The notes below the pieces were generated by a model, which saw nothing but the letters and a program-made list of their open reading frames with translations, searched no databases and was not told the DNA's origin. A stretch of DNA of 64,000 nt from Candidatus Thorarchaeota archaeon. Its GTDB lineage: Archaea; Asgardarchaeota; Thorarchaeia; Thorarchaeales; Thorarchaeaceae. Positions 10,650-53,408 of the stretch are shown here, one piece after another (position 1 is the stretch's first letter; every line of letters starts with the position of its first letter). The position numbers and the translations under genes were made by a program. The stretch is from assembly GCA_019057475.1 (NCBI GenBank), contig DXJO01000010.1, forward strand, positions 352,001 to 416,000. The letters run 5' to 3'.

Positions 10650-10997
10650 TCACTGAATAATCTTTCGGAGGTCCCCTGCAGACTGGGAACAACGACTGCA
10701 CTTCAGGGCGTGTGCCCAGCACCACATGAAGGCAGCATCCTCAGACCTGCCTGTCTTGTCATAGATCAACGCAAGATGAACAAGCGCGTCTGGATTGAGG
10801 GCTTCCAACTCCAGTGACTTCACAAGAGCCTCCTCCGCCTTCTCCAGCTTGCCGTGCGACCTCAGGAACGTTCCAAGGTAGTACCATGCCTGTGCATCCT
10901 CAGGTGCGTATTCAATGCGTTCTCTTATCATCCTCTCGAACTCGCTCATAGGCTGAAGTTCGAGAGAGTGAGTTCCAGTCCTATCAGAGATTGCCAT
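10650..10997 (-). CDS. TPR protein, third gene of GH3-ThiF operon
   Basis: PEDAQAWYYLG...AEEALVKSLEL...NPDALVHLA; SD GAGGAG; 10 bp from the ThiF gene. Confidence 0.75.
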   Translation of the reverse strand: MAISDRTGTHSLELQPMSEFERMIRERIEYAPEDAQAWYYLGTFLRSHGKLEKAEEALVKSLELEALNPDALVHLALIYDKTGRSEDAAFMWCWAHALKCSRCSQSAGDLRKIIQ

Positions 10998-11007
10998 GTT
11001 GCTCCTC

Positions 11008-11919
11008 TCACTGATTCTCCTTTGACAGTACCCCCACCGCTCTCCTGACCAACCAACGCTTCTTGGGGCCGGTCACACTCATCCTTGTGCCCAACAGGTC
11101 GATGTGAAGAGTGGTCGGCACCACAGGGATGCTCCCCTTGTCGAAGAGATATCCATAGACTGCCGTGCTTACTAAGGCAGCATTGAGCCTGCAGGCTGCT
11201 GCTACTGATGGGGGTGTGCCCTGTTTTGCCCGCCTTTTGCCCAACTGGATGTCTATTCCGGTTGGTCGGGCAGACAGGAAGTTCACAGCGTAGCGTTCAA
11301 TGAATCTCTGCCACTCCTCTGAATCGGGGTCCTCAGGTATCTCTCCAAAGAACTCTCTGAAGGATGGACTCCTTTCAGGGTCGAAGATGGCAATGCCAGC
11401 GCCCCACCCAATGACGGGACAGGTGAACACCGGAATGCCTTTCTCCCGTGCAAGGTCGAACATCCTCTCTCTCAGGTGCATCACAGAGACATCGAGCCCG
11501 TCAATGACGATGTCTGCGCCATCTACGAACTCCTCCACGTTGTCCCATGTGACACCGTCAACGTAGGCTCTAACATCCGCATCCGGATTGATCTCAAGAA
11601 TCTCCTGAGCAATCACATCTGCCTTGTTACGGAACATAGTGGACATCCTAGCACCGAGCTGACGGTTGAAGTTAGAGACCTCGAACACATCGGGGTCTGC
11701 AATCCTGAAGTGTTGAAAGCCCATTTGGGCAAGGGTGATGGTGACATCCGAGTTACCACCGACCCCAGCCTGAGCAATCACAACCCTGGATATCATCTGC
11801 TGCTCCACAGACGTGACTATCCCTGTGTTCCGGTCTGTCATCCTTAGGTAGTGGTCGTCAACTGCATGGAACTCGGGGAGGACACCATCCCACCACTTTG
11901 GCTCTGCATCTGACGACAT
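11008..11919 (-). CDS. ThiF/MoeB/E1-family adenylyltransferase
   Basis: AQAGVGGN, IADPDVFEVSNFNRQ, KADV...INP, DIVIDGLD; lacks the Zn-binding CxxC pairs of MoeB. Confidence 0.88.
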   Translation of the reverse strand: MSSDAEPKWWDGVLPEFHAVDDHYLRMTDRNTGIVTSVEQQMISRVVIAQAGVGGNSDVTITLAQMGFQHFRIADPDVFEVSNFNRQLGARMSTMFRNKADVIAQEILEINPDADVRAYVDGVTWDNVEEFVDGADIVIDGLDVSVMHLRERMFDLAREKGIPVFTCPVIGWGAGIAIFDPERSPSFREFFGEIPEDPDSEEWQRFIERYAVNFLSARPTGIDIQLGKRRAKQGTPPSVAAACRLNAALVSTAVYGYLFDKGSIPVVPTTLHIDLLGTRMSVTGPKKRWLVRRAVGVLSKENQ

Positions 11920-11920
11920 C

Positions 11921-13462
11921 TCACGCCGCCTCGCATACTGCCAACACCGACATGTCTGTTGTCAGCGGTACAGGCTTTGCTTGAAGGTGAGTTGCTTTCA
12001 CAAGCTCTTCATGTTGTGACGTTCTCATCTTTGCAAGTGTGGTTGGACCAAGGCCTCCCATTGCGCGAGAGTTGAGGAATTCCCAGTTGGCCTCTCCTAG
12101 AGCGTCCTCAAAGGCATTGACGAAATCTACCGAATCCACGTCACCACGAAACATGCCCGCGATTGTGTAGTGAGGTATCGGACCATCAATAACACCGACC
12201 ACTGAATAGTCCATGAGGTGCGCACCCGTTACCAAACAAGCCTTTGCCATAGCATCAATCACATGAACATCACTGAGCTTTTCACCTGCAAGACTCACAA
12301 CGTTACCCTTGCGACTGATGTGGCGAACAGTGTACGGGTCGATGTTGGAGATTGTGACCATGTCTCCAACTCTATATCTGTACCAACCGTTGCTATTTGT
12401 AAGCAGCATTTCATACCTGCTGCCCTTCTTCACGTCTGAGAGGGGAATCACTGTAGGCTCCTCACAATCAATCTCGGCCTCTGGGATAAATTCGAAGTAG
12501 TTTAGGTCGGGCATGAGTTGTATGCCCGGTTCTGGGAGAATCTGGGACGCCATGTAAGCTTCAGATGACGCATAACCTTCCCACACTGTGACTTGAGGTA
12601 GAATCTTGGCAATCCATTCTCTGTAAGGCTCAACATCAATCCCTCCACTAGCGAACAGCCGCAGGTTAGGCCACAGCTCAGCCACGTCAACCTTGCCATC
12701 GGAGTCCATCGCCCTGCGCAGTCGCTTTTCGTGCTTCGTGCCCTTGAGCTGCTCAAGAAGCCACGGACCGTACTGGTTCTCCATGCGACGGACAAAGGCT
12801 AGACTCAATGTGGCGATACCTTGGAGTGCAGTCACATCACGGGTTGCACAGCACATCGCATATGCCCGCATTTTCTCCTCCATGTCCTGAATCCTGAATA
12901 CATCTGGACCCGGCGAGATTAGACGCGCGAAAACCTTGTTGGCCTTTCGCACATAGAGGCCTGAACCGTATCCCAGGGGCACTCCGTTGATATCTCCAAA
13001 GACCGCTGGGGCACCAAACATAATCATCGATCCATCCAGAATCTTCGTGTTGTCAGGGTGCTGGTTCATGAATCCCATCCACATGCGTGCACCGCCAACT
13101 GAAGCGGTCTTCAACCCCGATGGCGTGATGGGCATATCCTTTGGCTTGCCTGTGGAACCAGAAGTTCTCAGGTACCAGATTACAGGCTCTGCTGTCATTA
13201 TCTTTCCTGTTGGATTCCGATAGACCTCTTCCAAAATGGGCCTCATCTTATTGTAATCCGTTAGGGGAACTCTTTCCGCGTATTCCTCGGGAGAAGCAAT
13301 AGACTCAAAGTCATAATCGCGACCTAGGACAGTGTCCTGATTACGGTTAAGTATCGAAGTCAGTAAGTCTTCAGTCACCTCTACGGGGTGATTGAGAACA
13401 TGCTCAATCTCCCGAGCTTTTCGTTTCGCTACAACCGAAACGATTCGTCTCATGATTGACAT
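11921..13462 (-). CDS. GH3-family acyl-acid amido synthetase
   Basis: TSGSTGKPKDMPIT, YASSE, YFEFIP, YEMLLTNSNGWYRYRVGD, GEKL; ATG 13462 follows SD GGAGGA. Confidence 0.88.
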   Translation of the reverse strand: MSIMRRIVSVVAKRKAREIEHVLNHPVEVTEDLLTSILNRNQDTVLGRDYDFESIASPEEYAERVPLTDYNKMRPILEEVYRNPTGKIMTAEPVIWYLRTSGSTGKPKDMPITPSGLKTASVGGARMWMGFMNQHPDNTKILDGSMIMFGAPAVFGDINGVPLGYGSGLYVRKANKVFARLISPGPDVFRIQDMEEKMRAYAMCCATRDVTALQGIATLSLAFVRRMENQYGPWLLEQLKGTKHEKRLRRAMDSDGKVDVAELWPNLRLFASGGIDVEPYREWIAKILPQVTVWEGYASSEAYMASQILPEPGIQLMPDLNYFEFIPEAEIDCEEPTVIPLSDVKKGSRYEMLLTNSNGWYRYRVGDMVTISNIDPYTVRHISRKGNVVSLAGEKLSDVHVIDAMAKACLVTGAHLMDYSVVGVIDGPIPHYTIAGMFRGDVDSVDFVNAFEDALGEANWEFLNSRAMGGLGPTTLAKMRTSQHEELVKATHLQAKPVPLTTDMSVLAVCEAA

Positions 13463-13530
13463 CTGCTCGAATCCTCCTTGCAGCCCGGGACACAAGTCCA
13501 AGATTGCCTTGTAAGATTACGAGTTCTAGA

Positions 13531-13699
13531 ATATCTTAAGTGGTGGCTCCGGAGCGTCAGGGCATTTTGGGCCGTATACGTGGGCCTTGCTCGTTGAAGG
13601 CCCGTTTAGAATACCTAACCTCATATAAGACGGCCTCAAATCATCAACAGGGCGTTATGAGCAGAGATAGACTGGTGCGACCGTGATAGTCTGTACCCT
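13531..13699 (-). promoter_or_regulatory. Conserved upstream element copy 1 (GH3 operon)
   Basis: Minus strand: box A AGGGTACAGACTATCACGGT (13699-13680), box B GTATTCTAAA (13614-13605), TATA-like CTTAAGATAT (13540-13531). Confidence 0.8.
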
Positions 13700-14000: not shown

Positions 14001-14169
14001 AGGGTACAGATTATCACGGTTGAGGACTCCAATAATGCCACATAATGCCCACATCAGCACAGGGGGGCCTATGGGCTCCTTTGTTAACTTCTAAAGAAAG
14101 AATAGGGCCCCATCAGGCGGGCAGGGTGAGAATAGGTCTACTTGCACGTTCTCGGTAGTTTGAATATAG
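14001..14169 (+). promoter_or_regulatory. Conserved upstream element copy 2 (recombination operon)
   Basis: Box A AGGGTACAGATTATCACGGT (14001-14020), box B AACTTCTAAA (14086-14095), TATA-like TTGAATATAG (14160-14169). Confidence 0.8.
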
Positions 14170-14221
14170 TTTGTTCTCACTGATTGCATCATACAGTGAG
14201 AGCACTGGGAGCGTATGTTCA

Positions 14222-14953
14222 GTGTCGAGGCTTGAACGAATACTAAAAGCTTCAATTGGTCAAGAGGGTCCGGAGACGGACTTGACCATGTTCTTCCAAA
14301 TGGAGTACAACACCCCTGACAGAAGCGTCATACGAGCGCGGATGGTCACCGACCAAAGCATCGCAGTGACTATCGGGCTGAGGAGCGCGATACTTGAACC
14401 CTTTAAGAGATTCCACATACCCTCAGATGGCGAATTCCTTGCGTGCGACATTCTAGGACTGATACCCGCTGTTGCAGTGATGCTGCGGAATCAGAGTCGA
14501 GGGGTGGCTGCGGGAACCATCGAGCGGGACTCGACAACGCGAATCATACTTGCATTCGAGTCTGAGATACCCATGAAAGACAATGGACTGAGAGATCTAG
14601 CATCCACCATCACCTGTACGATGCGGCAGTGGGGTGAGTGGACCAATGTGTTGCTCGGGACTCTTGATCGCGATCCTGTAGTGGGTGACTGGGAAATTGA
14701 CTGGCGTGAGTTTCTTGCTGGAGAGGCTGGATTCGTTACGATGCCGTGGTTCAGATCACTTGGCTTTCAGGACCGCAAGATCGCGCTCTCTAGGACAATA
14801 CTGGCGGCTGAGGCTTTGCTAATCTCAGTTCTCAATAGAAAGCAGCTCATAGACCCCGTCGCAATGCAGGTTCGGGACTGGATGAAATCGCTCAGCCCAC
14901 AGCCACACGTCACTGGATCTCATTACATCACTTTGGAAGAGGAGGTATTCTGA
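14222..14953 (+). CDS. Hypothetical protein, first gene of recombination operon
   Basis: Long ORF (possible start 14171); GTG 14222 follows GGGAG; TGATG coupling to next gene. Confidence 0.7.
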   Translation: MSRLERILKASIGQEGPETDLTMFFQMEYNTPDRSVIRARMVTDQSIAVTIGLRSAILEPFKRFHIPSDGEFLACDILGLIPAVAVMLRNQSRGVAAGTIERDSTTRIILAFESEIPMKDNGLRDLASTITCTMRQWGEWTNVLLGTLDRDPVVGDWEIDWREFLAGEAGFVTMPWFRSLGFQDRKIALSRTILAAEALLISVLNRKQLIDPVAMQVRDWMKSLSPQPHVTGSHYITLEEEVF

Positions 14954-15420
14954 TGGTATTGGTTAATGACTTTCACAACTCCGCGCGAACAATCTACAGT
15001 CCGATAGTAGATACCGCTTGGCTCGCTGGAGCACTGGCTGGGACTGACCATGCAGGTTCACGGAATGGGGACTGGTACTGGGCTCGATTCTTGGATGAGG
15101 TGAAAGAGATGGCATCGCTAGCAGGGAGTGTTCGACCCACTGAACCCGGAGCAGAGCCGGATGACAATGGATCAGTCTACGATGTTATTGGAGGATACAT
15201 CAGCACTGCAGGACGATTCACACAGGAGGGCTTGAGGTTCAAGGTGCCTGTGAGCAGGCAGCAAAAGATGGTTGGCCTGTTCGGGGGAATCCTCCTGAGA
15301 GAGCATGAAGATATGATTGTGAGAGGTTATGACCTCTCAAAATTCACCAGGCTGGTTCCTATCAGGGGGCCACTGGCTGATAGGATTAGCAAGACGAAGA
15401 GTACGGAGGTAATGAAATGA
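14953..15420 (+). CDS. Hypothetical protein
   Basis: Translationally coupled on both sides (TGATG, ATGA); SD GGAGG. Confidence 0.7.
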   Translation: MVLVNDFHNSARTIYSPIVDTAWLAGALAGTDHAGSRNGDWYWARFLDEVKEMASLAGSVRPTEPGAEPDDNGSVYDVIGGYISTAGRFTQEGLRFKVPVSRQQKMVGLFGGILLREHEDMIVRGYDLSKFTRLVPIRGPLADRISKTKSTEVMK

Positions 15421-16565
15421 CAGAGCTTACAGAGGTTCCAGGAGTCGGTTCCGTTGCAGCAAAGCAACTGAAGAACGCCTACATCACGACTGCGGAGCTG
15501 TTGGCCGTACAGAATGCCGACGAGCTGAATAATAAGGTAACACTTGGCGAGGGCACATGCACGAATATAATCCTGGCGGCCAGAGAGCTGCTTGGGATGT
15601 TCGCCTTCAAGTCTGCCCTTGAGGTCGAGAAGGAGAATGAGTCCAAGCCCCGGCTGAAGATAGGGCTTGAAAACGTTGACAGGCAACTGCTTGGAGGTCT
15701 TGAAATTGGCTCCCTTGTGGAGTTCTATGGCAAAGCCTCAGGCGGCAAGACACAAATGTGCGCCCACCTTGCGATAAGATGTCAGCTTCCCTTCGATGAG
15801 GGCGGCATTGAGGGTCGCGTAATATGGCTTGACAGTGAGTCATCATTCAAGACATCAATACTACGTGCGAACGCGAAGAGGTGGGGGCTTGACCCCGAAG
15901 TGGCTTTGGGCAACATTCAGACGATGCCTATAGTCACCTCGTACCATCTGGAACAACTCTTCGCCCGGATTCCACAGATGTGCATTGAACAGGGCATCAA
16001 GATGGTGGTCGTTGACTCACTGACCGGATTCTTTCGGGCAGAGCATGGGGGATTGGGTTCACTCGCTGTGCGACAACAGAGGATCAACAGGCTCCTGAAC
16101 CTCATGCGCCGAGTGGCAATGGCGACTGACGTGATGTTCGTCTACAGCAATCAAGCCATCTCAAGGATCGGTCCATTCCCCGTGCTGAACGCCCCGGTGG
16201 GAGGGCATATAGTATCGCACGCGTCTGATTATCGCTTCATGTCAACAGAGGGAAAGAGCGGAAAGCGCAAGCTGTACCTCAAGGACCATGCTGGGCTAGC
16301 TAACTTCAATGTTGAATTCAGCATAGGGTGGGGTGGATTCTACAACGACGAGAACGAGAGGAAAAAGATCGAACCCAAAATAGTGGAATACCTCAAGAGC
16401 AAGGACATATCCGCCGAGATACAGGAGAAGGACAAGAAGAAGGAGACAAAGAAGGTCAAGAAAGCCGAGAAGACCAAGAAGACAAAGAAATCAAAGAAGG
16501 CAGAAGCCAAGGCTGAAACCGAGGTAAAGCTGGAGGCGGAGGTAGTGCTGAAAGCAGAGGGTTAA
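15417..16565 (+). CDS. RadA/Rad51-family recombinase paralogue with Lys-rich C-terminal tail
   Basis: N-terminal HhH (LTEVPGVGSVAAKQL), FxxA motif FKSA, Walker A GKASGGKTQ, Walker B MVVVDSLT, SNQA, PVGGHIVSHASD. Confidence 0.88.
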   Translation: MTELTEVPGVGSVAAKQLKNAYITTAELLAVQNADELNNKVTLGEGTCTNIILAARELLGMFAFKSALEVEKENESKPRLKIGLENVDRQLLGGLEIGSLVEFYGKASGGKTQMCAHLAIRCQLPFDEGGIEGRVIWLDSESSFKTSILRANAKRWGLDPEVALGNIQTMPIVTSYHLEQLFARIPQMCIEQGIKMVVVDSLTGFFRAEHGGLGSLAVRQQRINRLLNLMRRVAMATDVMFVYSNQAISRIGPFPVLNAPVGGHIVSHASDYRFMSTEGKSGKRKLYLKDHAGLANFNVEFSIGWGGFYNDENERKKIEPKIVEYLKSKDISAEIQEKDKKKETKKVKKAEKTKKTKKSKKAEAKAETEVKLEAEVVLKAEG

Positions 16566-16569
16566 GGCG

Positions 16570-17010: not shown

Positions 17011-17618
17011 CCCACCTGTATGTCCCCCCCTCATCAAACAATGTGACGCCCAGCTCCACAATCAATCTTGTCAATCTACTGATGAGAAACACTAGCAGAC
17101 GAGTGACGGTACTCCAAGTAGGAGGAAAAGTGGATCCTGACCCAGAGGTATATGTTGTCACCCGGGTGGACTGGCGGGATAAGGATCTCAACAGGCCGAT
17201 TTTGCCCCAATTGCCAAAGGTGCTTTCGATGCTGGAAACTCTTCGAGGCTCTAGGGGTGTGCCCAAGGAGATTTACCTTGACAGTACGGATGGTGTTGTA
17301 TGCTACATACCAACCGGCATCAGAATGTCTCAGCTACCAAGCAGCGCCAAAGCATCAGTTCAATTCATCATGTCTGTAGCAAACCAAACGGTTAGCCACT
17401 TCGATTCGACACGGTCTGAGGTCGAGGACTGGTTCTGGAGGACAGCTCGCAAGAGTGGCTTCAATCCCGAGATTGTCGAGAGGATTGCCCGAAGGGAGAA
17501 GCACTACGACTCGCCATCTCACGAGCACAGGTTTAGCAAGGTCATAGAGAACTACTTCTCTCTGAGGTTCAAAGTCTATCGAGCAGAATCATGCCTGAAG
17601 CTGGAGGGAGCGTATTGA
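17007..17618 (+). CDS. Hypothetical protein
   Basis: Coupled ORF (TTGA overlap upstream, TGATG downstream). Confidence 0.7.
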   Translation: MTHLYVPPSSNNVTPSSTINLVNLLMRNTSRRVTVLQVGGKVDPDPEVYVVTRVDWRDKDLNRPILPQLPKVLSMLETLRGSRGVPKEIYLDSTDGVVCYIPTGIRMSQLPSSAKASVQFIMSVANQTVSHFDSTRSEVEDWFWRTARKSGFNPEIVERIARREKHYDSPSHEHRFSKVIENYFSLRFKVYRAESCLKLEGAY

Positions 17619-19594
17619 TGGATGTGATGCGATGGTTCCCGTACACTCCAAGACCTCAGCAGGATCGGGCCGTGACGCATGCTGCCCATGTGTTCCAAGA
17701 TAAGACAGTGGGCCTGCTATCTGCAGATTGTGGAGTAGGAAAGACAATTGCTGTACTCTCAGCGTATCTTGCAGTACGGGCGAAAGATGCATCATCGCGG
17801 TTGATTGTCCTTGCCAGGACGCACTCGCAGTCAAAAGTCTTTGAGGATGAGCTTAGAGTTCTCAGGGAGGAACCGGCCGCAATATCAGATGGACTCCAAT
17901 TGACGGCCACGAGTATGGTTTCACGGGGGCATGTCTGTCCATTGACCGACAAGATGAACTCGGTGTCGTCAGTCGGGTTCCTACGTGCATGCGCACAGAT
18001 GATAGGCTCAGGAAAGTGCAGCATGTACTGGAGTTTCTACAAACGGGGCGCCGAGGGTCGGCCTCAAATCCGCGACGCTGCCCGGCAAACTGTTGATGCC
18101 CTGCTGAATGAGGGCGTGGTCACTCGGGATGAAGCGGAGGACATGGGGCTCTCGGAAGGAGTATGCCCGTATGAGGTCTTGAGGTGGTGTGCGCGCAATA
18201 GTAGAGTAGTAATTGGTCCATACGGCTACCTATTCAGGGAGAGAGTGCGGAATGCGCTCCTCTCGTCGCTTGGAATGAGCTTACATGAAGTCGACTTGAT
18301 TGTCGATGAAGCACACAACCTAGCATCCCATGTACTGGGCTCGGAAACCGCGTGTGTCAGTCTATCAGACCTTGAATGGCTGAGAAAGCATGACACCGAG
18401 ATAGAGCGTGAAACGCAGGTCGAATGGCTCCCTGAGGCGGTTGACTTTCTCTGGGAAACCGTGATGACCAACCTTGATAATATCCACTCCGAAAAGAACC
18501 TTGAGAAGTGGGATGTACTGCCAAGGTTTGTAGATGAGTCACAGATACAAAATCTACTGCTTGGGACGAAGATTGGTCTGGATGAGTCTGATGGCACAGT
18601 ACCCACGGAGACCCCGCTGGATCGATTAGTAGAGTTCCTCTACACGGGGCACCGAGCAGTTCTGAGTGAGGACTGGCATGTCACGCTAGAGGTCAGAAAG
18701 CCTTGGAGGCAAGAGTCGAATAGCCGTGATGCCGATCTGAAGATCAGACCACTGAACGCCGCTGGATTATCAGCTCCCGTACTCAGAGGTGCAAGGTCTG
18801 CGTTGCTTATGTCCGGTACTTTGAGGCCACTGCAGCACTATGCGGATCTGTTGGGAGTGTCAGGTGCCCTGATGGAGAGCCTGATGAGTCCGTACCCCCA
18901 TGGGAGTCGCCTTGTGCTCATTGACAAGGACATCACAACCAAGTATACAGCGCGGGGCGAACGGCTGTGGAGGACCATAGCAAGAAGAATCTCGACAACC
19001 TTGACAGCGATGCCCTCCGAGAAGAGCGCTCTAATTGCCTTCCCTAGCTACAGGATGATGGAGGATGTTCTGAGCTACGGCATAGATTGTGGATTCAGAG
19101 CAAGGCTAGAGGAAGCTCCAGGAGATCGCATTGAGATTGTTAAGGACGCACTTGAGGAAGGGCCCCATACGGTGTTTTGTGTATATGGAGGCAAGTTCTC
19201 TGAGGGCGTTGACCTCGTGGAGGGCGGGTCGAGCATGGTTGACCTGATTATCGGGGTTGGGATTCCATTCAGTCCCCCAACCAGCTACCAAAAAGCCCTT
19301 CAAGAATGGTACGAGAGAAGATTCGGGAAGGGTGCAGGCTACTACTACTCGTCAATTGTACCGTCTTTTCGCATGGTTGCACAGCTTGTAGGTAGACTTC
19401 GACGGAGTCCTGAGGATCGGGGGGTGGTCGTGCTTCTCGACAAAAGGTTCCAGCAACACATCAGAGTCTTTGGAGATGACATGGTTTCGGACCACTGGCC
19501 CTACTCAGGAGAGGACGAGATGAGGGGTGCCATTGATCTATTTGTAAGCCAGAGGAACAGAACGGAGGAGGCGAAGGGAGCGGTTGGCGTCTAG
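17618..19594 (+). CDS. XPD/Rad3/DinG-family Fe-S DNA helicase
   Basis: Q motif FPYTPRPQQ, ADCGVGKT, four Cys (HVCP, RAC, KCS, VCPYE), VDEAHNL, MSGTL, FPSY, GKFSEGVD, QLVGRLRR. Confidence 0.9.
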   Translation: MDVMRWFPYTPRPQQDRAVTHAAHVFQDKTVGLLSADCGVGKTIAVLSAYLAVRAKDASSRLIVLARTHSQSKVFEDELRVLREEPAAISDGLQLTATSMVSRGHVCPLTDKMNSVSSVGFLRACAQMIGSGKCSMYWSFYKRGAEGRPQIRDAARQTVDALLNEGVVTRDEAEDMGLSEGVCPYEVLRWCARNSRVVIGPYGYLFRERVRNALLSSLGMSLHEVDLIVDEAHNLASHVLGSETACVSLSDLEWLRKHDTEIERETQVEWLPEAVDFLWETVMTNLDNIHSEKNLEKWDVLPRFVDESQIQNLLLGTKIGLDESDGTVPTETPLDRLVEFLYTGHRAVLSEDWHVTLEVRKPWRQESNSRDADLKIRPLNAAGLSAPVLRGARSALLMSGTLRPLQHYADLLGVSGALMESLMSPYPHGSRLVLIDKDITTKYTARGERLWRTIARRISTTLTAMPSEKSALIAFPSYRMMEDVLSYGIDCGFRARLEEAPGDRIEIVKDALEEGPHTVFCVYGGKFSEGVDLVEGGSSMVDLIIGVGIPFSPPTSYQKALQEWYERRFGKGAGYYYSSIVPSFRMVAQLVGRLRRSPEDRGVVVLLDKRFQQHIRVFGDDMVSDHWPYSGEDEMRGAIDLFVSQRNRTEEAKGAVGV

Positions 19595-20183: not shown

Positions 20184-20460
20184 GGTGCAAGCCCAGATTA
20201 CAATCCCCACATCGCTACGCCCTCGGGCTGTTATGGACTCATTATCAGTCGGCCATGGTTACAGTTGGATTGTTCTTGTTTCCACGCCTCTGAGGATAGC
20301 TCATGGAAGCACATCAGATGGGGACCTGCCAGAGCTACTGATTGTAGGTAAGACCCTCCTGATGAGCGGGGGAAATGAAGTCTACATCAACCGCTTGAGG
20401 AGGATGCTTGAGGTGTTGTCGGGCACTTCCGTAAGAGTACGGAGGGATGGCGATGTCTAA
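20173..20460 (+). CDS. Small hypothetical protein
   Basis: TTG 20173 follows SD GGAGGTG; fills the gap between coupled genes. Confidence 0.55.
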   Translation: MSTEVQAQITIPTSLRPRAVMDSLSVGHGYSWIVLVSTPLRIAHGSTSDGDLPELLIVGKTLLMSGGNEVYINRLRRMLEVLSGTSVRVRRDGDV

Positions 20461-26860: not shown

Positions 26861-27539
26861 GGATGATTCCATGTTCGGGCTTGACGGTCTGATACATCTC
26901 TCGGGAGTGGCTGGTTCTGGCAAGACCCTCTTTGCAGTCGCCTTGGCTTCCAAGGCTACGCGGAATGGAAAAGTGCTATGGATCAACACCGATGCGAAGA
27001 CCGCATTTGTCAATCATCTGAAGGTCAACATTGATTCGGTAGGTGGCGACAGGACAGCAAGCTCTATTCTCCCAATCGTGGGTCACAAGCGTGTTCGAGA
27101 AGCCATTCTCGATCTTCCAAACAGTCTTGACAATAACACGGTGCTTTTGGTAGTCGACCCCGTAACGCGAGCTTTGGATATGTCCCACAGAGAGGATGTG
27201 ATGTGGGGCAGAGAAATGTTCGAGGAAGTGATGCCCACCCTTGCAGGTCTGGTGATTGCCAGAGGAATGAATGTGGTAATAGTGTCTGAGAGCAGGAGCT
27301 TTGACCGCGAGCCTGCTGCTGTGTTTCATAGGTCGATAGAGAGGTGGGCTGATCACGACTTGGTACTGTCTAGGCGGTATGGCGCATTAACCACGGATGT
27401 GGCACGGTATCAGACTGAAGGTGCCGTTCCTTTTGTGCAATTCACATTAACAGAGGAGGGGGTCGTTAAGGTGACAGAATTCAATGATGGAAACAACTCG
27501 GAGGTGTCGGATTGTTCGGGAAGTCGATGCTCCGCGTAG
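26841..27539 (+). CDS. RadB-like / Rad51-paralogue ATPase (no N-terminal domain)
   Basis: LIHLSGVAGSGKT, KVLWINTD, LLVVDPVT; alternative start ATG 26871. Confidence 0.8.
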   Translation: MERSQLKDDSMFGLDGLIHLSGVAGSGKTLFAVALASKATRNGKVLWINTDAKTAFVNHLKVNIDSVGGDRTASSILPIVGHKRVREAILDLPNSLDNNTVLLVVDPVTRALDMSHREDVMWGREMFEEVMPTLAGLVIARGMNVVIVSESRSFDREPAAVFHRSIERWADHDLVLSRRYGALTTDVARYQTEGAVPFVQFTLTEEGVVKVTEFNDGNNSEVSDCSGSRCSA

Positions 27540-33154: not shown

Positions 33155-33754
33155 ATGCAGATTGACCTGCCGGCAGCACTGTTTGCAAATCTAGTGTTCT
33201 CTGTCAAGATTGCACCTGGGATACTGGCAATTGTGACAGTCGTCAGAGGACTGATACTCCTAAGTGGACAGAAGCGAGAGTTCGAGGACTGGACACGCAA
33301 CTCACTGATGTCAGCCCTATCGATCATATTCCTCCCCGGCACGCTAGCCTACATCGGGATAAGGTACACAGTAAGCAGAGCCTTTGGCATAGATGTGGAG
33401 AACATCGGCGGCTCGACAACCTATGGGGAGATCAACCTCTTCCTGAAGGTGGAACGTCCACCTCGGGTAGTGATTGTGCTATCTGCCCTGTACATGATAG
33501 TGGTGATGTCGGTGTTTGTTGCACTATCGCTGATTCTCCTGCCAGCGTTACTGTTCTTCCAGAACATGCCGGTTGTGCTGTTCTGTTGGTACGTGGCGAT
33601 AGGCGTTCTTTTCAACATCTCATTGAGGAGCGGGGATGTTTCACTTGTGGTCGCATCCCTACGCAGAAGGCCGCGTGCTGGTGCACTTGAGTTCATCGCT
33701 GTGATGGTGGCGCTTGTCCTTCTCTATACGCAGGTTGTGGGGGTGCTCGTTTGA
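33155..33754 (+). CDS. Polytopic membrane protein, probable inactive membrane zincin (M50-like) homologue
   Basis: About 5 TM helices; FLPGTLAYIGIR where the family has PGTxxHExxH; SLRSGD at the third-ligand position. Confidence 0.6.
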   Translation: MQIDLPAALFANLVFSVKIAPGILAIVTVVRGLILLSGQKREFEDWTRNSLMSALSIIFLPGTLAYIGIRYTVSRAFGIDVENIGGSTTYGEINLFLKVERPPRVVIVLSALYMIVVMSVFVALSLILLPALLFFQNMPVVLFCWYVAIGVLFNISLRSGDVSLVVASLRRRPRAGALEFIAVMVALVLLYTQVVGVLV

Positions 33755-43763: not shown

Positions 43764-44456
43764 CTATCTCTCTCCATAGATGCTATTCCATACCCTGTTG
43801 GTCTGCTCTTCGGTTGCCCCAATGGTCTTGAGGTCTTTCTTCGCAGCCTCGCCCCGTTTCATCTCCAGAACCAGTAGGAATAGGTCGTGTTGCACTTTCA
43901 GGCTGCTCTCTCTTGCGCTGTTGATCACTGTGGGAGTCTTCTCCCGCTCGAAGAACCGGGCGCGTGCCTCACGAGGCTTGATGGGCTCTATACTAACCAG
44001 TCTGAGGGCCTCGGCCTCTCCGTCAAGCTGGGATAACATAATCCACAGGTCGGCATCCTCCTTGTGAGCAAAGAGCCGAAGGTACGGTTCATCTGACTCA
44101 TCGTTCTCTGCAGTGGCAAGGAAGACCATGTCCATCTCGATGTCGATATCACCGTACATCCTTGTGTTCCTTGCCTTTTTGAAGACCTCTTTTGCGACCC
44201 TTGCCTGCTCCCTGCGATGGGACATCTTCACCATCCACTGCATGACAACTTCCACTTGCTGACCATTATCCACCCTGCTTTTCAGGAAGTGGACCCTTTT
44301 GCCATCATAGTCCAGCCGCCATGTGGTCGTGAACACTGTCTTGTTATCCTCTCCCAGACCGCCATCAACTTCAGTGATGGTTTTAAAAGTGTCTGCTTTG
44401 CTCGACTTGATCTCTGTGATAGAAGGTCTTACTACGGGCCTCGATTGGGTTGGCAT
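43764..44456 (-). CDS. Hypothetical protein, probably co-transcribed with paralogue B
   Basis: 230-aa ORF, 32 bp upstream of the next gene. Confidence 0.65.
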   Translation of the reverse strand: MPTQSRPVVRPSITEIKSSKADTFKTITEVDGGLGEDNKTVFTTTWRLDYDGKRVHFLKSRVDNGQQVEVVMQWMVKMSHRREQARVAKEVFKKARNTRMYGDIDIEMDMVFLATAENDESDEPYLRLFAHKEDADLWIMLSQLDGEAEALRLVSIEPIKPREARARFFEREKTPTVINSARESSLKVQHDLFLLVLEMKRGEAAKKDLKTIGATEEQTNRVWNSIYGER

Positions 44457-44566
44457 ACCCCATAATGTGCTTCCACTCCGTAAAAAGTAGCACGGTCACT
44501 CTGGTAGGATTGAGCAGGCTACAACTGGGAGAGAAGAGGAGGCTCAGATGATGGAGCTACTTGCTC

Positions 44567-45265
44567 CTACAAGATGTCTGGTGGGGGGCCAAGAGCTGCG
44601 CCACAGCTTGAGCAGAATTGGGCATTCGGAAGACGTAGGTGTTGGCCGCAGTGTGGGCAATAGTTCGTCCTCACCCGCCCAGATGTATGGGCTTGCTGGG
44701 ATGGAGGCTGTACGTACTCCGGCACTTGCTTCCTCGTCTTCGTGCGCTTTCCCACGTAGTGAAATACTACTGCAATCCCTACGATTACCAATGCGAGAAG
44801 GCCTAGACCTGCCATCCCTAACAATGTGCTAGATGGCGATGTGGGCGACCGAACCTCGACAGTCCCTTCAACATGTTTCCTAGTGAACCAGTTGTCATTG
44901 TAGAACACAACCCGCCACTCACCGTCTGAGGGCACACTGAAGCTGGTTGAGTAGCTTCCCACGTTCTCATGCAACACAGAAACTGTCACGCTATTCCCGT
45001 CACTCCAGAGGTCGTAAGTCTCACCATCACAAATGAAGAAGTCGATGTCTGACCCCGATGTAACCTCAAAGTCTACGTAGATCACATCACCCTCATCAAG
45101 CTGGGTCTGGTAGAAGCTATACCATGATCGTTGGTCTAGCCATATGTCAACATCTGCAAGAGGTCGCATATCGTTCTCTTGAGCTGGTGCCGCAGCTTGA
45201 ACTAGCACAGGCGCTATGGCGAAGACCACTAGAATGCATGCGATGGTTTCCCTTTTCACGGACAT
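44567..45265 (-). CDS. Single-pass membrane protein: signal peptide, GOLD-like beta-sandwich, TM, cytoplasmic Zn ribbon
   Basis: MSVKRETIACILVV...; FEVTSGSDIDFFI...GEWRVVFYN; TM; CPHCG...FCSSCG. Confidence 0.75.
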   Translation of the reverse strand: MSVKRETIACILVVFAIAPVLVQAAAPAQENDMRPLADVDIWLDQRSWYSFYQTQLDEGDVIYVDFEVTSGSDIDFFICDGETYDLWSDGNSVTVSVLHENVGSYSTSFSVPSDGEWRVVFYNDNWFTRKHVEGTVEVRSPTSPSSTLLGMAGLGLLALVIVGIAVVFHYVGKRTKTRKQVPEYVQPPSQQAHTSGRVRTNYCPHCGQHLRLPNAQFCSSCGAALGPPPDIL

Positions 45266-45395
45266 GTCCCACCTTAGTCCAAGAGAGTGTATCACCGGAA
45301 TAAGTAGCTTCTCTTGACAGACCCCCTAGCCATATGCCCGCCCTCAAGAACACCCACTAATGACCCAACCTGAAATCGATGCCTTTAGGTTGAAC

Positions 45396-45564
45396 AGGGT
45401 ACAGATTATCACGGTTCATGTATGCAAGAAGCCGACAGAAGGGCGGTGGGGGCCTATGGAGGCCTAAGAATTCTCAAGATGTATTCTAAACCCGCAATAG
45501 GACTCCTTGTACCTCTTTAGGTTCTATCCGCCCTTTATCAGTTTCAACCGACACTTCAAGTACT
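45396..45564 (+). promoter_or_regulatory. Conserved upstream element copy 4 (HerA/VirB4 ATPase operon)
   Basis: Box A AGGGTACAGATTATCACGGT (45396-45415), box B GTATTCTAAA (45481-45490), TATA-like TTCAAGTACT (45555-45564). Confidence 0.8.
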
Positions 45565-45822: not shown

Positions 45823-48800
45823 ATGATTTTCTCAATTATCAAACCACTTGTGAAGTACGCCATAATGTTGATTGTGGTCGTGTTCGGAGCAATGATCTGT
45901 GCCCTCATTGCCACGATTCCCATACGACTGAACCCTGCGATGCCCAGCCTGCTGCGAACTCTTGGCTTCTGGATCTCGGTATTGTGCTTTGGAGTGGGAA
46001 TGCTTGATTTGGTCTTCCGACGCAGCATGCAAGTCATGAAGCAGTCGGGCAAGATTGGAGTCGCAGTGCCTTTCGCGGTCCTCATCATAAGCATCCCGAT
46101 AACCCTAATCGAGGTTGCACTGAGGATTGTCGACCCCATGACACTGGCATGCATGGTGGTCATGGCTGTCGTATCCATCGTGTTCTTGTACGACGACATC
46201 GTAGCTCGAGTCAACAAGCTCCGAGGTATGACTTCAGGCGAATCAGGCACTTACTCGAAGCCAAGCATATCTTCGAGGTCACGTCCTCTGAGCGCAAACG
46301 CCCTTGCTAAGCAGTCAGACAACATTCTGGTGGGGGCATACGAGGTTGTAGAATGTCCTGTGGACTATATCGGTGGTGCTTCCACAGCGGACAGACGAGA
46401 GCTCTACGAACCATTCCACACACTTGTCCGGGGTATGGCAGGCAGCAAAGCACCGGTAGGTCTACGGTTAGAGCGCATTGAAGGTCGGACGCGGGAGTTC
46501 TTCCTCACAGTTGGTCTGACAGCAGCCGGCCTTACCCACAACATGGACCTGCTTGAGAGGATTCTTGCAGGGAATCTGCCAAGATTCAGGTTCAAGCGTC
46601 ATAACCGGTTCACTTGCCCAACTGCGAAGATTGGCATGACTGGCGCCTTGGCCCATCTCACCGGCGAGCCCCTGAGTGTTACAGACACACGGCAGAGTGT
46701 AGACCCCCTTACAGTCCTTGCAGAGTCGTTCCAGCATCATGAGGATGGCATCATGCAGGTCTTTGTGACTCCTGCCCCTCAAGGAGTTGTCAGGTCATTG
46801 ACACGAGCCTGGAAGGGTAGGCAGTACCAGAACAAGACGCAACAAGCAACGAAGACGGTCTCCAAGAAGAGCAGTGGGCTGTTCTCAGGCGGTTCTGAGG
46901 AGTCTGTAACGACGGTCAATGTGGCCGCTGCAAGTGAAGCTGACCGACTTGATCGAGAGGTCCAGCGATACAGAGCGGAGAACGCATGCGAGCTGGAGGC
47001 AATAGTCGGGTACTGGGATGACTCACGCAGAGACGCAACGCAGGAGGCTCACACCCTGATGGAAATTCTGAGGGGTGCAGTGGTCCCTGCAGATGTTGAA
47101 CGAGACCTGAAAATCACAACTAGCAGGAGGAGCGAGGACTTTCAGAGGCTCGTAGATGGAAAGCCTGTTGGTATCGCAACGCTTCTCCTACCAGAAGAGG
47201 CCTCAATGTTCCTTACACTGCCCCGTTGTGACCTAGGGATTGTCACTTCTAGACGTGAGTCCTTCTCTACAGCCACGACTCCTGTTCCCGCCCCACTGGA
47301 GGATGCGATAAGCCCCGGTGAAGGCTCTGTGACAGCATCTCAGAAATCCGGACGAAGCAGATACGAAATGAAACAGCCATATCCCAATAGGAGGGGCGGG
47401 GTTATTCTCGGGAATCCAATTCGGAAGAGCGGGGACGCCATAGCTGGCAAGTTCATATGGTTCCGCCATCAGCAGTTCGAGTCACACATTGGCATATACG
47501 GAAACACACGGTCCGGAAAGACAACAACCGCTCTCTCTGTTGCGGCTCAGGCGATCAACTGTGGAATACGGACATTGATGCTCATTCCTCGGAAGGGCGG
47601 AGACTGGGTAAGGCTGTCGTACATGAAGCCTGAGATCTGGGTCTTCACAGCAGGAAATCAAGGCGGCACACAGTTTCGCAAGAACATCTTCATACCTCCC
47701 ACTGGAGTACAGCTCACCAGGTGGATAGCGGAGCTAGTCAAGATATTCTCCGCGTGGCTCCCCAACGACCGCGTGATGAGTATGCACTTCGATGACATCT
47801 TTCATACAATATACCGCAACTGTGGCTGGAACCAAGATACGAACGTGCAGGGAAGACCCCCTCTGCTGAAGGACTTCTGGGATGCAGTGGAGGAGGTCTG
47901 CATCGACTTCCAGTACAGTGACGAGCTCAAGAGCAACTTCTACGGTGCACTGTACAGCCGTATGTCCAGCATGCTGCGGAACCACGGCATAGTGGACATG
48001 TACAATACAACTGAAGGCATCACTTGGGAGGAGCTGGTGGAGAATGATGTCATCATCATCATGGAGGACCTTCCAGAGGCTGACATGGCATTGCTCACGA
48101 GCATACTGCTGGCAGGGGTTCACCTCTACAAGATAGCACACCCGACCGAGATGATAACGAATCTCGTGGTGCTGGAAGAGGCCAGCTATCTGCTCAAGAG
48201 GTCTACTGGACATGATATCTATGGTCCTGACGTACACGAGGTGATGTCACGGGGCATTGTGGACATGTTCACCACGGGTGGTGGTAACGGTCTTGGCTGC
48301 ATGGTCGTTGAACAGCTGCCCGTGCGTCTTGTGAAGGATGTGTTCAAACTGATCGTCAATGTCATAGTCCATGCCATGGCCGATGAGGATGAGAGAAGGC
48401 TGGTCGGCGGTCACATAGGCGTTGATGAGAAGCAGTTGGACCACCTCAGACAGATGCGGAGGGGTGAGACCGTTGTTCATCTGGAGGGGCAGGGCGTGCC
48501 ACAGAGTGTCAAGATCATGCCCTTGGATATCTTTCTTGAAGCCCCCCTTCCGAAGAAGCCATTGACCAACGAGATGATTCGCGATGTGATGAGACCTATT
48601 TACGAGAAGCATCCGAACCTCGCATCAGTTGAGGAGCTGCCCAGTGAGATCATTGCGCGCATCGAACGAGCGAAACCCAGTGCAGAGGAGTCAACAAAGG
48701 AAGTACAGAGAGAACGCGTGCACCTGTCCATCGAGCGGATACTGGACCCTGATGCCAAGACGCGCCTCAGCCATCTTGTTGAGAACCATAGGTTCTCGAA

Positions 48801-49020
48801 ACGTTACTACGAGTCACTGAGAAAGGCTGCCAGTAGTGATTCTACCTCTTTTGTAGACCTCATGGTCACTGCGGTGAAGAAGGCAAGTCCTGAAGGTGCT
48901 GATCTGTCAACCCTGGCAGAGTGGTTCATCCCTCATGTCAGGGACGTACTCGGTGCTCCTGACGACGGAACACTGTTCAGTGACCTTACTGCGCGTGTGA
49001 GAGAGAAGGTCACCGCCTAA
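45823..49020 (+). CDS. Membrane-anchored HerA/VirB4/VirD4-superfamily ATPase (CedB-like architecture)
   Basis: 4 N-terminal TM helices; HIGIYGNTRSGKTTT; LVVLEEASYLL; GLGCMVVEQLP; LRQMRRGETVV. Confidence 0.8.
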   Translation: MIFSIIKPLVKYAIMLIVVVFGAMICALIATIPIRLNPAMPSLLRTLGFWISVLCFGVGMLDLVFRRSMQVMKQSGKIGVAVPFAVLIISIPITLIEVALRIVDPMTLACMVVMAVVSIVFLYDDIVARVNKLRGMTSGESGTYSKPSISSRSRPLSANALAKQSDNILVGAYEVVECPVDYIGGASTADRRELYEPFHTLVRGMAGSKAPVGLRLERIEGRTREFFLTVGLTAAGLTHNMDLLERILAGNLPRFRFKRHNRFTCPTAKIGMTGALAHLTGEPLSVTDTRQSVDPLTVLAESFQHHEDGIMQVFVTPAPQGVVRSLTRAWKGRQYQNKTQQATKTVSKKSSGLFSGGSEESVTTVNVAAASEADRLDREVQRYRAENACELEAIVGYWDDSRRDATQEAHTLMEILRGAVVPADVERDLKITTSRRSEDFQRLVDGKPVGIATLLLPEEASMFLTLPRCDLGIVTSRRESFSTATTPVPAPLEDAISPGEGSVTASQKSGRSRYEMKQPYPNRRGGVILGNPIRKSGDAIAGKFIWFRHQQFESHIGIYGNTRSGKTTTALSVAAQAINCGIRTLMLIPRKGGDWVRLSYMKPEIWVFTAGNQGGTQFRKNIFIPPTGVQLTRWIAELVKIFSAWLPNDRVMSMHFDDIFHTIYRNCGWNQDTNVQGRPPLLKDFWDAVEEVCIDFQYSDELKSNFYGALYSRMSSMLRNHGIVDMYNTTEGITWEELVENDVIIIMEDLPEADMALLTSILLAGVHLYKIAHPTEMITNLVVLEEASYLLKRSTGHDIYGPDVHEVMSRGIVDMFTTGGGNGLGCMVVEQLPVRLVKDVFKLIVNVIVHAMADEDERRLVGGHIGVDEKQLDHLRQMRRGETVVHLEGQGVPQSVKIMPLDIFLEAPLPKKPLTNEMIRDVMRPIYEKHPNLASVEELPSEIIARIERAKPSAEESTKEVQRERVHLSIERILDPDAKTRLSHLVENHRFSKRYYESLRKAASSDSTSFVDLMVTAVKKASPEGADLSTLAEWFIPHVRDVLGAPDDGTLFSDLTARVREKVTA

Positions 49021-49034
49021 CAGAGGGACTGACC

Positions 49035-52000: not shown

Positions 52001-53408
52001 CATCGAGAGGGCTGAGCCATCAACTCGCGTCTTCTTTGCTGAGCTTCGTCCATACCATCAATCGGGTCCCAACTGGCTGAATGCGATTGCTGATGACATA
52101 GCGGCGCAAGAAGGGAAAATTGAGATTTTGCTAAACGAGTCATTGAGAGAAGTAATAGGGCCTGACGAACGACTTCAGATTGGCGTAGTTGGTCGCACTC
52201 TCTATGTTTGGTGCCATAGAACAAATCAATTAAACTGGGCTAACCTCTATTCAGACGAGCTCTTCTACTTCGATATGAAATACAAGAGAGAACTAGTCAA
52301 GCGTATGCGTTCAGCTCTTAGCATTTCTGGCAATGTTAGGCTTGCCTCACTAGTGGAAAGAATATGCAATCATTACTCAGATGGCAGGCTGCGGCGCAAC
52401 CCCACGTCTGACTTCTTGGTAGTAGATATACCCTACATCAGTGGTGAAGCATTGCATTTCTTAATCGATACTATTGGTGTGAGTCTGGACAGCTTGCCTG
52501 TTAGGCAGATAGGCACCAATAGGAACGACGGTCAGATCATCAACCCCAAGTTTCCACGAAACATTGGCCAAATCATCGCACAGCTCTATGCAATAGTCGT
52601 AAGTGATGGCCACATAGACAACCAGTGCTCGGTCTACTACAGAGAAAAGCGACCGGCAAGGCTTGAGATAGTAAGACGATTGTTCTGTCAGCTTGGAGAT
52701 GTCGCCTACAGATACCTAGAAGAAATCAATGGGACTGGGGGTTTGTATTTTCCGCCAGTAATCGGTCGAATGCTTGCAAAGGTTGGGATGCCAATTGGGA
52801 ACAAAACGAACATCAATATGGGATTGCCGTCGTTCATACTGAAGAATCCCAAATCCTATGGTCGTGACCATCTACGAGAGGTCATCCCAGAAGACGGCTC
52901 TTTCCAATTCTCAAGACCATGTTTCTCTATCAGTCGTGCAGCACTTCTCCACATCCCAGACAGTAGTCCAATGATTACTCCTGAAGAAATTGAATTAATT
53001 CACAGTCATGGATCTCCCCTAACTCTGAAATTCCCTGATAACCACAGAGATGCCATTTCCATAACTTTTCGCTGTCTTTATGACCTTTCTAAAACGAATA
53101 AAAACGCGAACAAACTGTATCAACGGATTCTCCAGACAAGGAATCGCCTACTCGATGATGAAGGTCGAATCTGCAAGGCAAATGGTATTGACACAAAGAT
53201 ACGCCCAAGTCGAGTGTATTTGCATAAGGATACAGGCAAAATAACAGTAATTTGGCGTTTGAGAACAAGAACACTTCAAGATGCAATGAGATGGGCTATT
53301 CTGGCTCCCCCTCATGATGTATATAAGCGCTCATTGATTGAAAGATTCATAAATGCACGACAGGACATCCGCGACCAAGTGCAAGGTCAACTCAGAGAAG
53401 AAGGATAG
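49035..53408 (+). CDS. 1457-aa protein: acidic disordered N-terminus, four HTH-containing repeats, C-terminal LAGLIDADG-like endonuclease domain
   Basis: HTH e.g. TQNEIAEILGTRQTRVSKW...P; LAGLIDADG-like LYAIVVSDGHI and HLREVIPEDGSF with intervening G.K....LPSFI. Confidence 0.7.
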   Translation: MRRGDYEGGNEGRERRSHHEEGESSEHHERSESNNLMDEIERDLESGEKRTTDADELMDDIVRELEGRSEIEELMDEIERDLEGEQEARETTEAEQLMDEVKKELEDDRETVESVEDRLDEFEEDILENFEKYGIDGDEVMERWRERFVEDVEEELENDSASDQPDESAEVSDDAADSEMTEAAESYSHSESGDGTVQILKSEGHSETTESVGESEEHKAEMEPQAESDSSVEGEKDRAVEESNQKEGLESPETEKQIAQETESETSENSAQHELKRDSKESIPETSEDAQARQQTSETVSESSEEKAEAAEQKEEQAEGIESHSVRVECEELAEEEVEDTQTEGHLNESEEEGEVIQDSDSENMQEWKEDGESEELADSEHLEEPDSTQSTLESYHEVLEENISPDAEELDEDEEVDERVVSDDERLTGMLDSPYPHVYVDETGFFAETEEQRWRRKLIELYNELPEEMKQLYRELVKATLESEEGLEKLLDTFPELRDQEEYEEKHEDALEYVRFRQKLQELELLGTPEETTAEELALELDIDQETVEKWLNDDYDSFPKLIQQVWNQEIERRWGTVLRAIANRDVPYDMSEVNEILKRFPELKRKRCFGWHYDEVKAWTEVMAAKKHGKITTLIIQGKERFKVDEVEELAKRFSFTVDKVVRWLRDESRPRLVDVLTEKKLRLRSKQNGTIQEPTIVQEASTFEDWIQRELGDFAGLLNDKQIKRIHEVHAISSFVDPKYENSQYSAESDSTIDESRRNILRSKEDLDEAIEANPGIREFKDFAKTYHDALAYIRLRIMLESEATGALTQNEIAEILGTRQTRVSKWMLGQATPRIIRSIEGHPRFETDFAPAIESFSDVIGLIKHIPHIIDSKRFSERLLQSWLYHEFKQQDKNGNLAEYSNKELSRIFGVSKRAIWCWRTSKTRPILDNMLSTQERARRKHEASLQSKARELRIDPSLVYESFRGLKKSKDRTLQSIAESIRELIERAEPSTRVFFAELRPYHQSGPNWLNAIADDIAAQEGKIEILLNESLREVIGPDERLQIGVVGRTLYVWCHRTNQLNWANLYSDELFYFDMKYKRELVKRMRSALSISGNVRLASLVERICNHYSDGRLRRNPTSDFLVVDIPYISGEALHFLIDTIGVSLDSLPVRQIGTNRNDGQIINPKFPRNIGQIIAQLYAIVVSDGHIDNQCSVYYREKRPARLEIVRRLFCQLGDVAYRYLEEINGTGGLYFPPVIGRMLAKVGMPIGNKTNINMGLPSFILKNPKSYGRDHLREVIPEDGSFQFSRPCFSISRAALLHIPDSSPMITPEEIELIHSHGSPLTLKFPDNHRDAISITFRCLYDLSKTNKNANKLYQRILQTRNRLLDDEGRICKANGIDTKIRPSRVYLHKDTGKITVIWRLRTRTLQDAMRWAILAPPHDVYKRSLIERFINARQDIRDQVQGQLREEG
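49140..49352 (+). repeat. Four imperfect coding repeats LMD(E/D)(I/V)xx(D/E)LE
   Basis: LMDEIERDLE, LMDDIVRELE, LMDEIERDLE, LMDEVKKELE; visible in DNA as (C/T)T(A/G)ATGGAYGA. Confidence 0.75.

Follow-up and report, generated by a model that had tools for sequence, protein, structure and literature searches.

A conserved Thorarchaeota gene cluster behind a lineage-specific two-box element, its nuclease modules, and a possible DNA-exchange programme

What kind of cellular programme would set an acyl-amino-acid ligase, a further set of enzymes for recombination, a giant surface protein and a membrane ATPase with a nuclease partner behind one and the same upstream sequence? The question is raised by positions 10650-53408 of a 64,000-nucleotide (nt) stretch of contig DXJO01000010.1 (hereafter, the window), in which the original prediction, made from the letters alone, had seen an undescribed regulon for contact-dependent DNA exchange, probably in an Asgard archaeon. 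The host is indeed one, Candidatus Thorarchaeota by the names of the database matches, and the gene identities then proposed (GH3, ThiF, helicases, recombinases, surface protein, ATPase) hold in family searches. The region is composed of two layers, a conserved single-copy cluster and a mobile multicopy ATPase-nuclease module, and I will argue, at odds slightly better than even (about 0.55), that together they may represent an inducible programme of DNA exchange by cell contact, which homing nucleases exploit. In what follows, G000 is this genome (a 3.34-Mb assembly), and G, L and C numbers stand for compared genomes, loci and contigs.

The two-box element

A 20-nt box, AGGGTACAGATTATCACGGT, lies at 13680-13699 on the minus strand and at 14001-14020, 32937-32956 and 45396-45415 on the plus strand, and there is no fifth match with three or fewer mismatches anywhere in the genome. 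A second box, TTCTAA, follows exactly 68 nt downstream of the first in 14/14 sites of the genus, plus 3 more contigs, and a two-box weight matrix scores the four window sites at 47.7-52.5, with the next best genome site at 16.0. The upstream element claimed for four units is thus real, the whole-genome search giving these four sites only, and each box points into one unit:

13606-13699, minus strand: two-box element 1 (box and TTCTAA), GH3-ThiF-TPR unit
14001-14094, plus strand: two-box element 2 (box and TTCTAA), long operon
32937-33030, plus strand: two-box element 3 (box and TTCTAA), membrane and surface protein unit
45396-45489, plus strand: two-box element 4 (box and TTCTAA), mobile ATPase and nuclease module

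The window's own box letters are confined to its genus. The three promoters of the cluster share a box in 7 genera, with letters that are specific to the lineage: TTGTTGTGCCGTTTGCGATGA is found at these promoters in G007, TTGTATACATTTGTCCAA in G011 and G035, GTGTTACGGCTGTGCAAATG in G013, and further distinct boxes in G012, in G017, G031 and G119, and in G024. Similarly, a second box stands about 70 nt on in most of the other-lineage elements, and genome-wide scans with the other-lineage boxes return 4-9 sites per source genome as against 0 for the reversed control. Read this way, the predicted regulon is conserved while the letters of its box turn over by lineage, and such fixed spacing with changing letters would make a clean case for regulator-site co-evolution. 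The element is a putative promoter, and the units that bear it would be co-expressed. There are also extra box-bearing sites (L135 at G035:C25:30027, L138, L141, L132 and L146, and G013:C16:46715), which comprise a surface-protein gene of the toroid type, a gene resembling the nuclease partner, and repeated elements that contain a small Cys-rich gene; these are possible further members of the regulon.

The conserved cluster and its regulators

The cluster behind the first three elements, including the two interspersed winged helix-turn-helix (wHTH)/Lrp-like genes that had been noticed at the outset and are indeed present, with a tandem Lrp/AsnC fold, reads as follows (aa, amino acids; TM, transmembrane):

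10650-10997, minus strand: TPR protein, accessory gene adjoining GH3 in genus g1 and G030
11008-11919, minus strand: ThiF/E1-like adenylyltransferase, nearest model PRK08223, below cut-off
11921-13501, minus strand: GH3-family acyl-amino-acid ligase, core, catalytic motifs intact
14171-15420, plus strand: two conserved proteins without a known family, the first with an uncertain start
15417-16565, plus strand: second RadA/Rad51 paralog with helix-hairpin-helix domain and intact Walker A (other RadA on contig C39)
16570-17618, plus strand: Zn-ribbon protein and conserved 203-aa protein, no known family
17591-19594, plus strand: XPD/DinG-type helicase, paralog of the copy on C54
19584-20460, plus strand: small membrane protein and 99-aa partner
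20447-22804, plus strand: HerA/VirB4-like pseudo-ATPase with membrane anchor and lost Walker A, core gene in single copy, related proteins across Asgard
22855-25059, plus strand: Hel308/Ski2-like helicase with SWIM zinc finger
25046-26860, plus strand: 2-TM protein with acidic tail, no known family
26841-27539, plus strand: RadB-like P-loop protein
27512-28483, plus strand: 4-TM protein, no known family
28362-29180, plus strand: Rad51-paralog-like protein
29193-30179, plus strand: XPG/FEN1-family nuclease paralog
30172-30975, plus strand: HisKA-HATPase fragment
31172-32920, minus strand: tandem Lrp/AsnC-fold protein 1 (regulator 1), candidate DNA-specificity factor, box 3 just upstream on the opposite strand
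33155-33754, plus strand: conserved multi-pass membrane protein (199 aa)
33891-41717, plus strand: 2608-aa surface protein, N-terminal hydrophobic segment, C-terminal TM segment
41740-43731, minus strand: tandem Lrp/AsnC-fold protein 2 (regulator 2), fastest-changing gene of those compared within the genus

The order GH3, 15 coupled operon genes, regulator 1, membrane protein, surface protein and regulator 2 is kept in about 15 genomes of the family, and most of the set is found in a second family in G037, with part of it in G043. Going by coordinates only, G071 from another Asgard family holds the RadB-like, Hel308-like, RadA-paralog and dead-ATPase genes within 13 kb, and G076, from yet another, has the same four within 18 kb, joined by homologs of the surface protein and, weakly, of the membrane protein, with GH3 10 kb further. 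The dead ATPase is present in 52/76 family genomes, the 199-aa membrane protein, as a single copy, in 47/59 and regulator 2 in 43/45, the core genes being single-copy with the exception of regulator 2, which is mostly double in genus g5. Co-occurrence had been expected of all four units; it holds, in order across the family, for GH3, the operon, the surface protein and the two Lrp-like genes and fails for the ATPase and nuclease unit, which is no fixed part of the cluster but a patchy multicopy mobile module that adjoins it only in this genome. Two smaller points need trimming as well: the gene content of the proposed 16-gene operon is right, but only 15/16 genes are conserved, the HisKA-HATPase fragment sitting at this place only in genus g1, and both genes of the proposed GH3 and ThiF pair are there, but ThiF adjoins GH3 in only 5 of the loci examined; ThiF and the His-kinase fragment are accessory.

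The recombination enzymes of the operon are paralogs, with other RadA, XPD, Hel308 and FEN1 genes elsewhere in the genome. The surface protein, a putative cell-contact or adhesion protein, possesses two alpha/alpha toroids and many Ig/MG-like domains, and its fold matches are partial (TM-score about 0.3-0.6 by target), including a human translocon/oligosaccharyltransferase chain, which I take to be ribophorin II, and RabGGTase beta; a reading as alpha-2-macroglobulin was dropped, the thioester motif being absent. An Atlas search with the 2-TM protein returned no usable match, and the three other membrane proteins showed no homology when their profiles were set against those of the ATPases, so that kinship of the 199-aa protein with the ATPase N-terminus, which was also considered, is unsupported. 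Nine GH3 matches, several in tandem, were seen in G057 (family f12).

Regulators 1 and 2 are paralogs of each other (98% probability). The structural model of regulator 2 (predicted local distance difference test score, pLDDT, 86) shows a tandem Lrp/AsnC fold of wHTH and RAM-domain, its Atlas neighbours are AsnC/HTH_24 clusters, and it aligns with NirDL at Z 10.1 with a root-mean-square deviation of 5.8 over 267 aligned positions; NirDL is itself an enzyme, so the Lrp fold is no proof of regulation. Between genera, few of the genes are less conserved than these two (median 25% and 28%), and within the genus, whose box does not change, regulator 1 stands at 86-88% and regulator 2 at 74-80%. This pattern is consistent with regulator 1 setting DNA specificity and regulator 2 varying in ligand or partner, and the two-box element is probably read by the pair. 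Copies of regulator 2 also occur on contigs that bear LAGLIDADG genes (G256:C269:18420-23182, where the two are 1.5 kb apart, G232:C14, G269:C50 and G128:C134), and genus g5, with its mostly two copies, has no clear box.

The nuclease module and the insertion in mcmA

Behind the fourth element lies the mobile module, and on both sides of the whole region lie the two parts of a broken methylmalonyl-CoA mutase gene, mcmA:

7554-9227, plus strand: hybrid mcmA, left end of the insertion, host 5' part to about 8170 and recoded 3' part after it
45823-49020, plus strand: 4-TM HerA/VirB4-like ATPase, intact Walker A/B, mobile, 0-5 matches per genome
49035-53408, plus strand: nuclease partner with acidic N-terminus (37% D/E), HTH repeats and LAGLIDADG domain at about 52030-53405 (two motifs, at 52584 and 52881)
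53451-54508, plus strand: displaced native 3' half of mcmA, right end of the insertion, followed by an epimerase gene

Compared with the intact genes of G001, G004 and G006, mcmA at 7554-9227 is about 93% identical up to 8170 and about 65-70% beyond, and the fragment at 53451-54508 is about 91% identical to the genes of G001, G003, G004 and G006 from the same codon on; the identity switch and the displaced fragment together imply that 8171-53450 was inserted in mcmA and brought a recoded 3' half. The LAGLIDADG gene stops 42 nt from the break. Empty alleles are found in G001, G003, G004 and G006, and an occupied one in G005 has the same junctions and a 94% identical nuclease tip, with the cluster still at its native site; this G005 tip, the sole close homolog with an intact end, occupies the same mcmA site. 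The junctions are shared with G005 and free of N, which makes an assembly artefact unlikely there. What they show is a duplicated, recoded gene at about 64% DNA identity, without att core or box, and a second gene-restoring insertion, in a porA-like gene of G004, likewise has a junction without a box. No integrase, relaxase, pilin or capsid family was matched among the window proteins, as had been claimed, and for the relaxase it should be added that several of the conserved proteins have no known family. The statement that this is no ordinary integrative and conjugative element (ICE) was therefore right, both for want of an integrase match and in view of junctions that are not an att core, but the stretch is nonetheless a mobile island, and the 45-kb insertion had been overlooked.

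At the native site of the cluster in this genome (C3:36529-37059) there remains only the 5' end of regulator 2 fused to the 3' end of the TPR gene at about 10 nt of microhomology. In the part that the scar covers, regulator 2 of the window shares 75-76% identity with three sequences (the scar, G004 and G005) that agree with one another at 83-85%; furthermore, the window GH3 and regulator 2 genes show 82% and 80% DNA identity to those of relatives, which are 93% and 86% identical to each other. Probably, then, the element introduced a cluster of partly foreign origin in place of the native one, the position of the cluster inside the element being known from one assembly plus the C3 scar, with no second assembly found.

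Matches to the module ATPase occur in 19/36 family genomes, up to five per genome, and a large acidic protein nearly always follows; G001 and G004 carry a 92-95% identical ATPase at another locus. The N-terminus of the partner is kept within the genus (about 80%) and its tip is swapped among LAGLIDADG, basic/NUMOD3-like repeats with HNH, and others. Modules unlinked to the cluster carry the host's own box in 10 genomes (G000, G001, G004 with 2/3, G005, G007, G011, G012, G013, G022 and G035 with 2/2), and ATPases of distant tree branches carry the same box if they share a host, so that the box follows the host lineage and not the ATPase tree. An alignment of 116 nt between one module promoter and that of the operon suggests copying. 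To the original picture the analysis adds the box-carrying nuclease modules across lineages, the empty and occupied mcmA alleles, and the capture of the cluster with loss of the native one.

The two window ATPases are homologous over about 480 columns (probability 97%), and both are membrane-anchored, unlike the soluble NurA-linked HerA, and fall on separate branches from it, as the original prediction required, in a tree that has long branches, is unrooted and lacks true CedB, TedB and VirB4 rows. A HerA-NurA resection system was accordingly rejected for the window, the HerA-NurA pair of this genome being on contig C54. No archaeal conjugative VirB4 was among the 30 plasmid matches listed. 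L249 (C54:41310-45059) encodes a further HerA-like ATPase, 1250 aa long and anchored in the membrane, with its Walker A intact and without a box; proteins of a size similar to it are the matches in the Loki-like family f9, and L249 is a candidate motor partner for the dead subunit.

Several other nuclease loci deserve mention. G000 has a second ATPase and LAGLIDADG module (L030, C21:65191-70455) without N-terminal TM segments and without a box, and on C18, at about 17700-18630, a leftover LAGLIDADG tip at a site that a module occupies in G004 and G001, with ATPase and most of the partner deleted in G000. An N-terminally truncated extra nuclease gene stands directly behind the hybrid mcmA of G005 (L178, G005:C34:9868-13782), like an orphan cassette, with a similar case in G013:C79. 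The LAGLIDADG family of L219-L246 is present in 52/86 family genomes, often beside a displaced gene tail, the 3' end of a gene or tRNA-like sequence. The nuclease tip had no match in a metagenome scan.

A possible DNA-exchange programme and its rivals

On the reading I favour, the host layer would be switched by the lineage-specific two-box element, read by the tandem-Lrp proteins and placed before three units: the GH3 ligase would make an acyl-amino-acid signal or lipid; the giant surface protein and its membrane partner would mediate cell contact; and a membrane scaffold would assemble around the dead HerA/VirB4-like subunit, co-transcribed with the second recombination set, which would recombine incoming DNA into the chromosome. 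In the parasite layer, the module would have taken on the host box so as to fire when two chromosomes meet; the LAGLIDADG domain, a predicted homing nuclease, would cut the empty mcmA, and repair would copy the element, which restores mcmA with its recoded 3' half. The active ATPase probably plugs into the host channel, moving the nuclease or DNA. Now considering that homing nucleases spread only when alleles meet, be they brought together by sex or gene transfer (PMC1654191), and that the modules repeatedly carry the box of the regulon, we have the strongest argument for DNA exchange. A larger proposal, which I advance tentatively and would not wager on, is an inducible Asgard mating-like programme with its own recombination set at the membrane contact, made lineage-specific through fast-changing regulators and boxes, and parasitised by homing drives that have a motor of their own, are switched on from the shared promoter and are able to seize the programme entire and take its place.

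The nearest known systems are Ced/Ups of Sulfolobales and Ted of Thermoproteales, DNA-exchange systems with a repair regulon under the dedicated transcription factor TFB3 (PMC9905601). The likeness is that of a chromosomal, co-regulated membrane machine with a VirB4/HerA-like subunit and linked recombination genes (PMC9905601), co-regulation here being predicted from the shared box. However, the core ATPase of the cluster is dead and its active homolog mobile and patchy; in place of HerA-NurA/Rad50 the cluster has its own set of RadA, Rad51-paralog, XPD, Hel308-SWIM and XPG proteins; and it adds GH3, the 2608-aa surface protein and the lineage-specific two-box element with its Lrp-like proteins. 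The insertion, in turn, resembles the mobile open reading frames (mORFs) with a carried C-terminus described in Allomyces atp6 and Glomus atp6, atp9, cox2 and nad3, where a free-standing LAGLIDADG gene sits in a conserved gene with a divergent replacement 3' end and the native end displaced downstream (PMC3630166). The hybrid gene, the displaced native 3' part, the empty alleles and both catalytic motifs adjoining the junction are all found here, but on an archaeal chromosome, with 14-45 kb of cargo, a nuclease fused to acidic and HTH regions, a membrane ATPase and a host regulon box upstream. A homing nuclease tied to the sexual programme of its host also has a precedent in yeast VDE, the VMA1 intein, which homes only in meiosis (PMC1654191). 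The tie here would be the shared box, and there is no intein or intron. Searches of the literature on Asgard with VirB4, GH3, RadA paralogs or homing, covering few subscription papers, came upon no account of the cluster, the box or the element.

Several observations weigh against exchange. Walker A is lost in 18/18 orthologs of the operon HerA-like protein, and the near-complete genomes G009, G014, G016, G017 and G024 have the cluster and no module-ATPase match, so that a host motor is missing. The multi-pass proteins have no match, CedA/VirB6 included, in Pfam, NCBIfam or PDB profiles, no small two-TM pilin-like conserved gene (CedA1/TedC) appears among open reading frames above 60-80 aa, and CedD is represented only by a 42-aa match far below cut-off; with pore and pilin homologs not found and the core ATPase dead, I have not filed the cluster under Ced/Ted, and the missing motor and pore are the main weakness of the proposal. 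In addition, no common box rises above shuffled controls in G034, G036, G014, G028, G010, G009 and G030; modules without a box exist (G000 C21, G004 C116 and L257, one boxless module also having a nuclease broken by a repeat); GH3 lies apart from the cluster in G016 and G030 and is disrupted at its usual place in G017; and the nearest curated model of GH3 is an ornithine-lipid synthetase. What stands of contact-dependent exchange as first proposed is the conserved cluster with its shared box in 7 genera, and what finds no support is an ATPase-nuclease unit as a fixed part of it; with the core ATPase dead, the cluster by itself has no demonstrated DNA motor.

Could the same genes serve a programme of stress or development (DNA damage, dormancy, aggregation) that involves no exchange, with self-repair at the membrane and with modules switched on alongside it as polymorphic toxins or defence? 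Polymorphic nuclease toxins are exported by FtsK/HerA-family pumps, and the module has the pump gene beside a large protein, the constant acidic N-terminus with a variable, swappable nuclease tip, orphan tips nearby and, at 9/30 loci, a coupled downstream gene of about 200 aa that is immunity-gene-like, which counts against the exchange reading; defence HerA proteins are also among the best solved-structure matches of the module ATPase, and the absence of pore and pilin matches suits this account too. However, the tips are of homing type, the downstream gene is absent in the window module and in G005, the stop so close to the break at a recoded target is homing-element anatomy, PADLOC returned one weak match only, and self-repair leaves the co-regulated giant surface protein and four membrane proteins unexplained, so I regard this account as unlikely. 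A domesticated or active conjugative element, providing transfer machinery for itself and satellite modules, would fit flanking genes that vary between genera, a cluster that moved in this genome with its native site deleted, and GH3 and regulator 2 alleles that look imported, but sits badly with the one copy per genome in most of the family, sequences that have diverged deeply (25-56% protein identity), the same left neighbour kept in several genera and no relaxase, integrase or replication gene matched in the window; it is distinctly improbable.

Natural competence offers another comparison, for streptococcal ComRS/ComX joins a signal, a lineage-specific regulator, a dedicated promoter, a DNA machine and a recombinase in one regulon, and one-way uptake of free DNA for repair or food under a GH3-made pheromone would follow the same logic of signal enzyme, dedicated promoter, membrane machine and recombinase, with regulator 2 diverging fast and lying within a few kb of GH3 in 6 genomes. 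The Lrp-fold proteins and GH3 would then replace peptide pheromone and sigma factor, but uptake-protein homologs were not found (no ComEC, ComEA, DprA or type IV pilin match among the window proteins), the giant surface protein and VirB4-like subunit suit cell contact better, and homing of 14-45 kb inserts is harder via fragment uptake; I give competence slightly less credence even than conjugation. Least credible of all is that the two-box element is a recombination or transfer-origin site and not a promoter: the left edge of the module does lie about 60 nt upstream of the box, and copies are homogenised within a genome (a 110-nt near-identical repeat in G013), but the elements always face in the sense direction and in most cases stand 100-430 nt before the unit's first gene, and the actual insertion junctions at mcmA and porA hold no box.

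If exchange is the right answer, the box-carrying homing elements would be a natural reporter of chromosomes meeting under the programme. Few molecular handles on DNA exchange have so far been available in the archaeal relatives of eukaryotes, and a defined gene set, an upstream element and candidate regulators are now at hand, bearing on whether a regulated recombination programme separate from repair predated meiosis. Independently of exchange, a LAGLIDADG element that leaves its target gene restored, with a motor in the membrane and a cargo of as much as 45 kb, would be a novel type of integrase-free mobile element in archaea. The element carries passengers as well:

9746-10441, plus strand: acidic passenger gene with further copies on other contigs of G000
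43764-45295, minus strand: two passenger genes, also on other islands

Copies of these passengers are found on C4, C20, C22, C25, C28 and C36, and they occur together at another site in G005. Lastly, a TPR-like reading frame on the minus strand (window 9102-9629) overlaps the end of the recoded mcmA.

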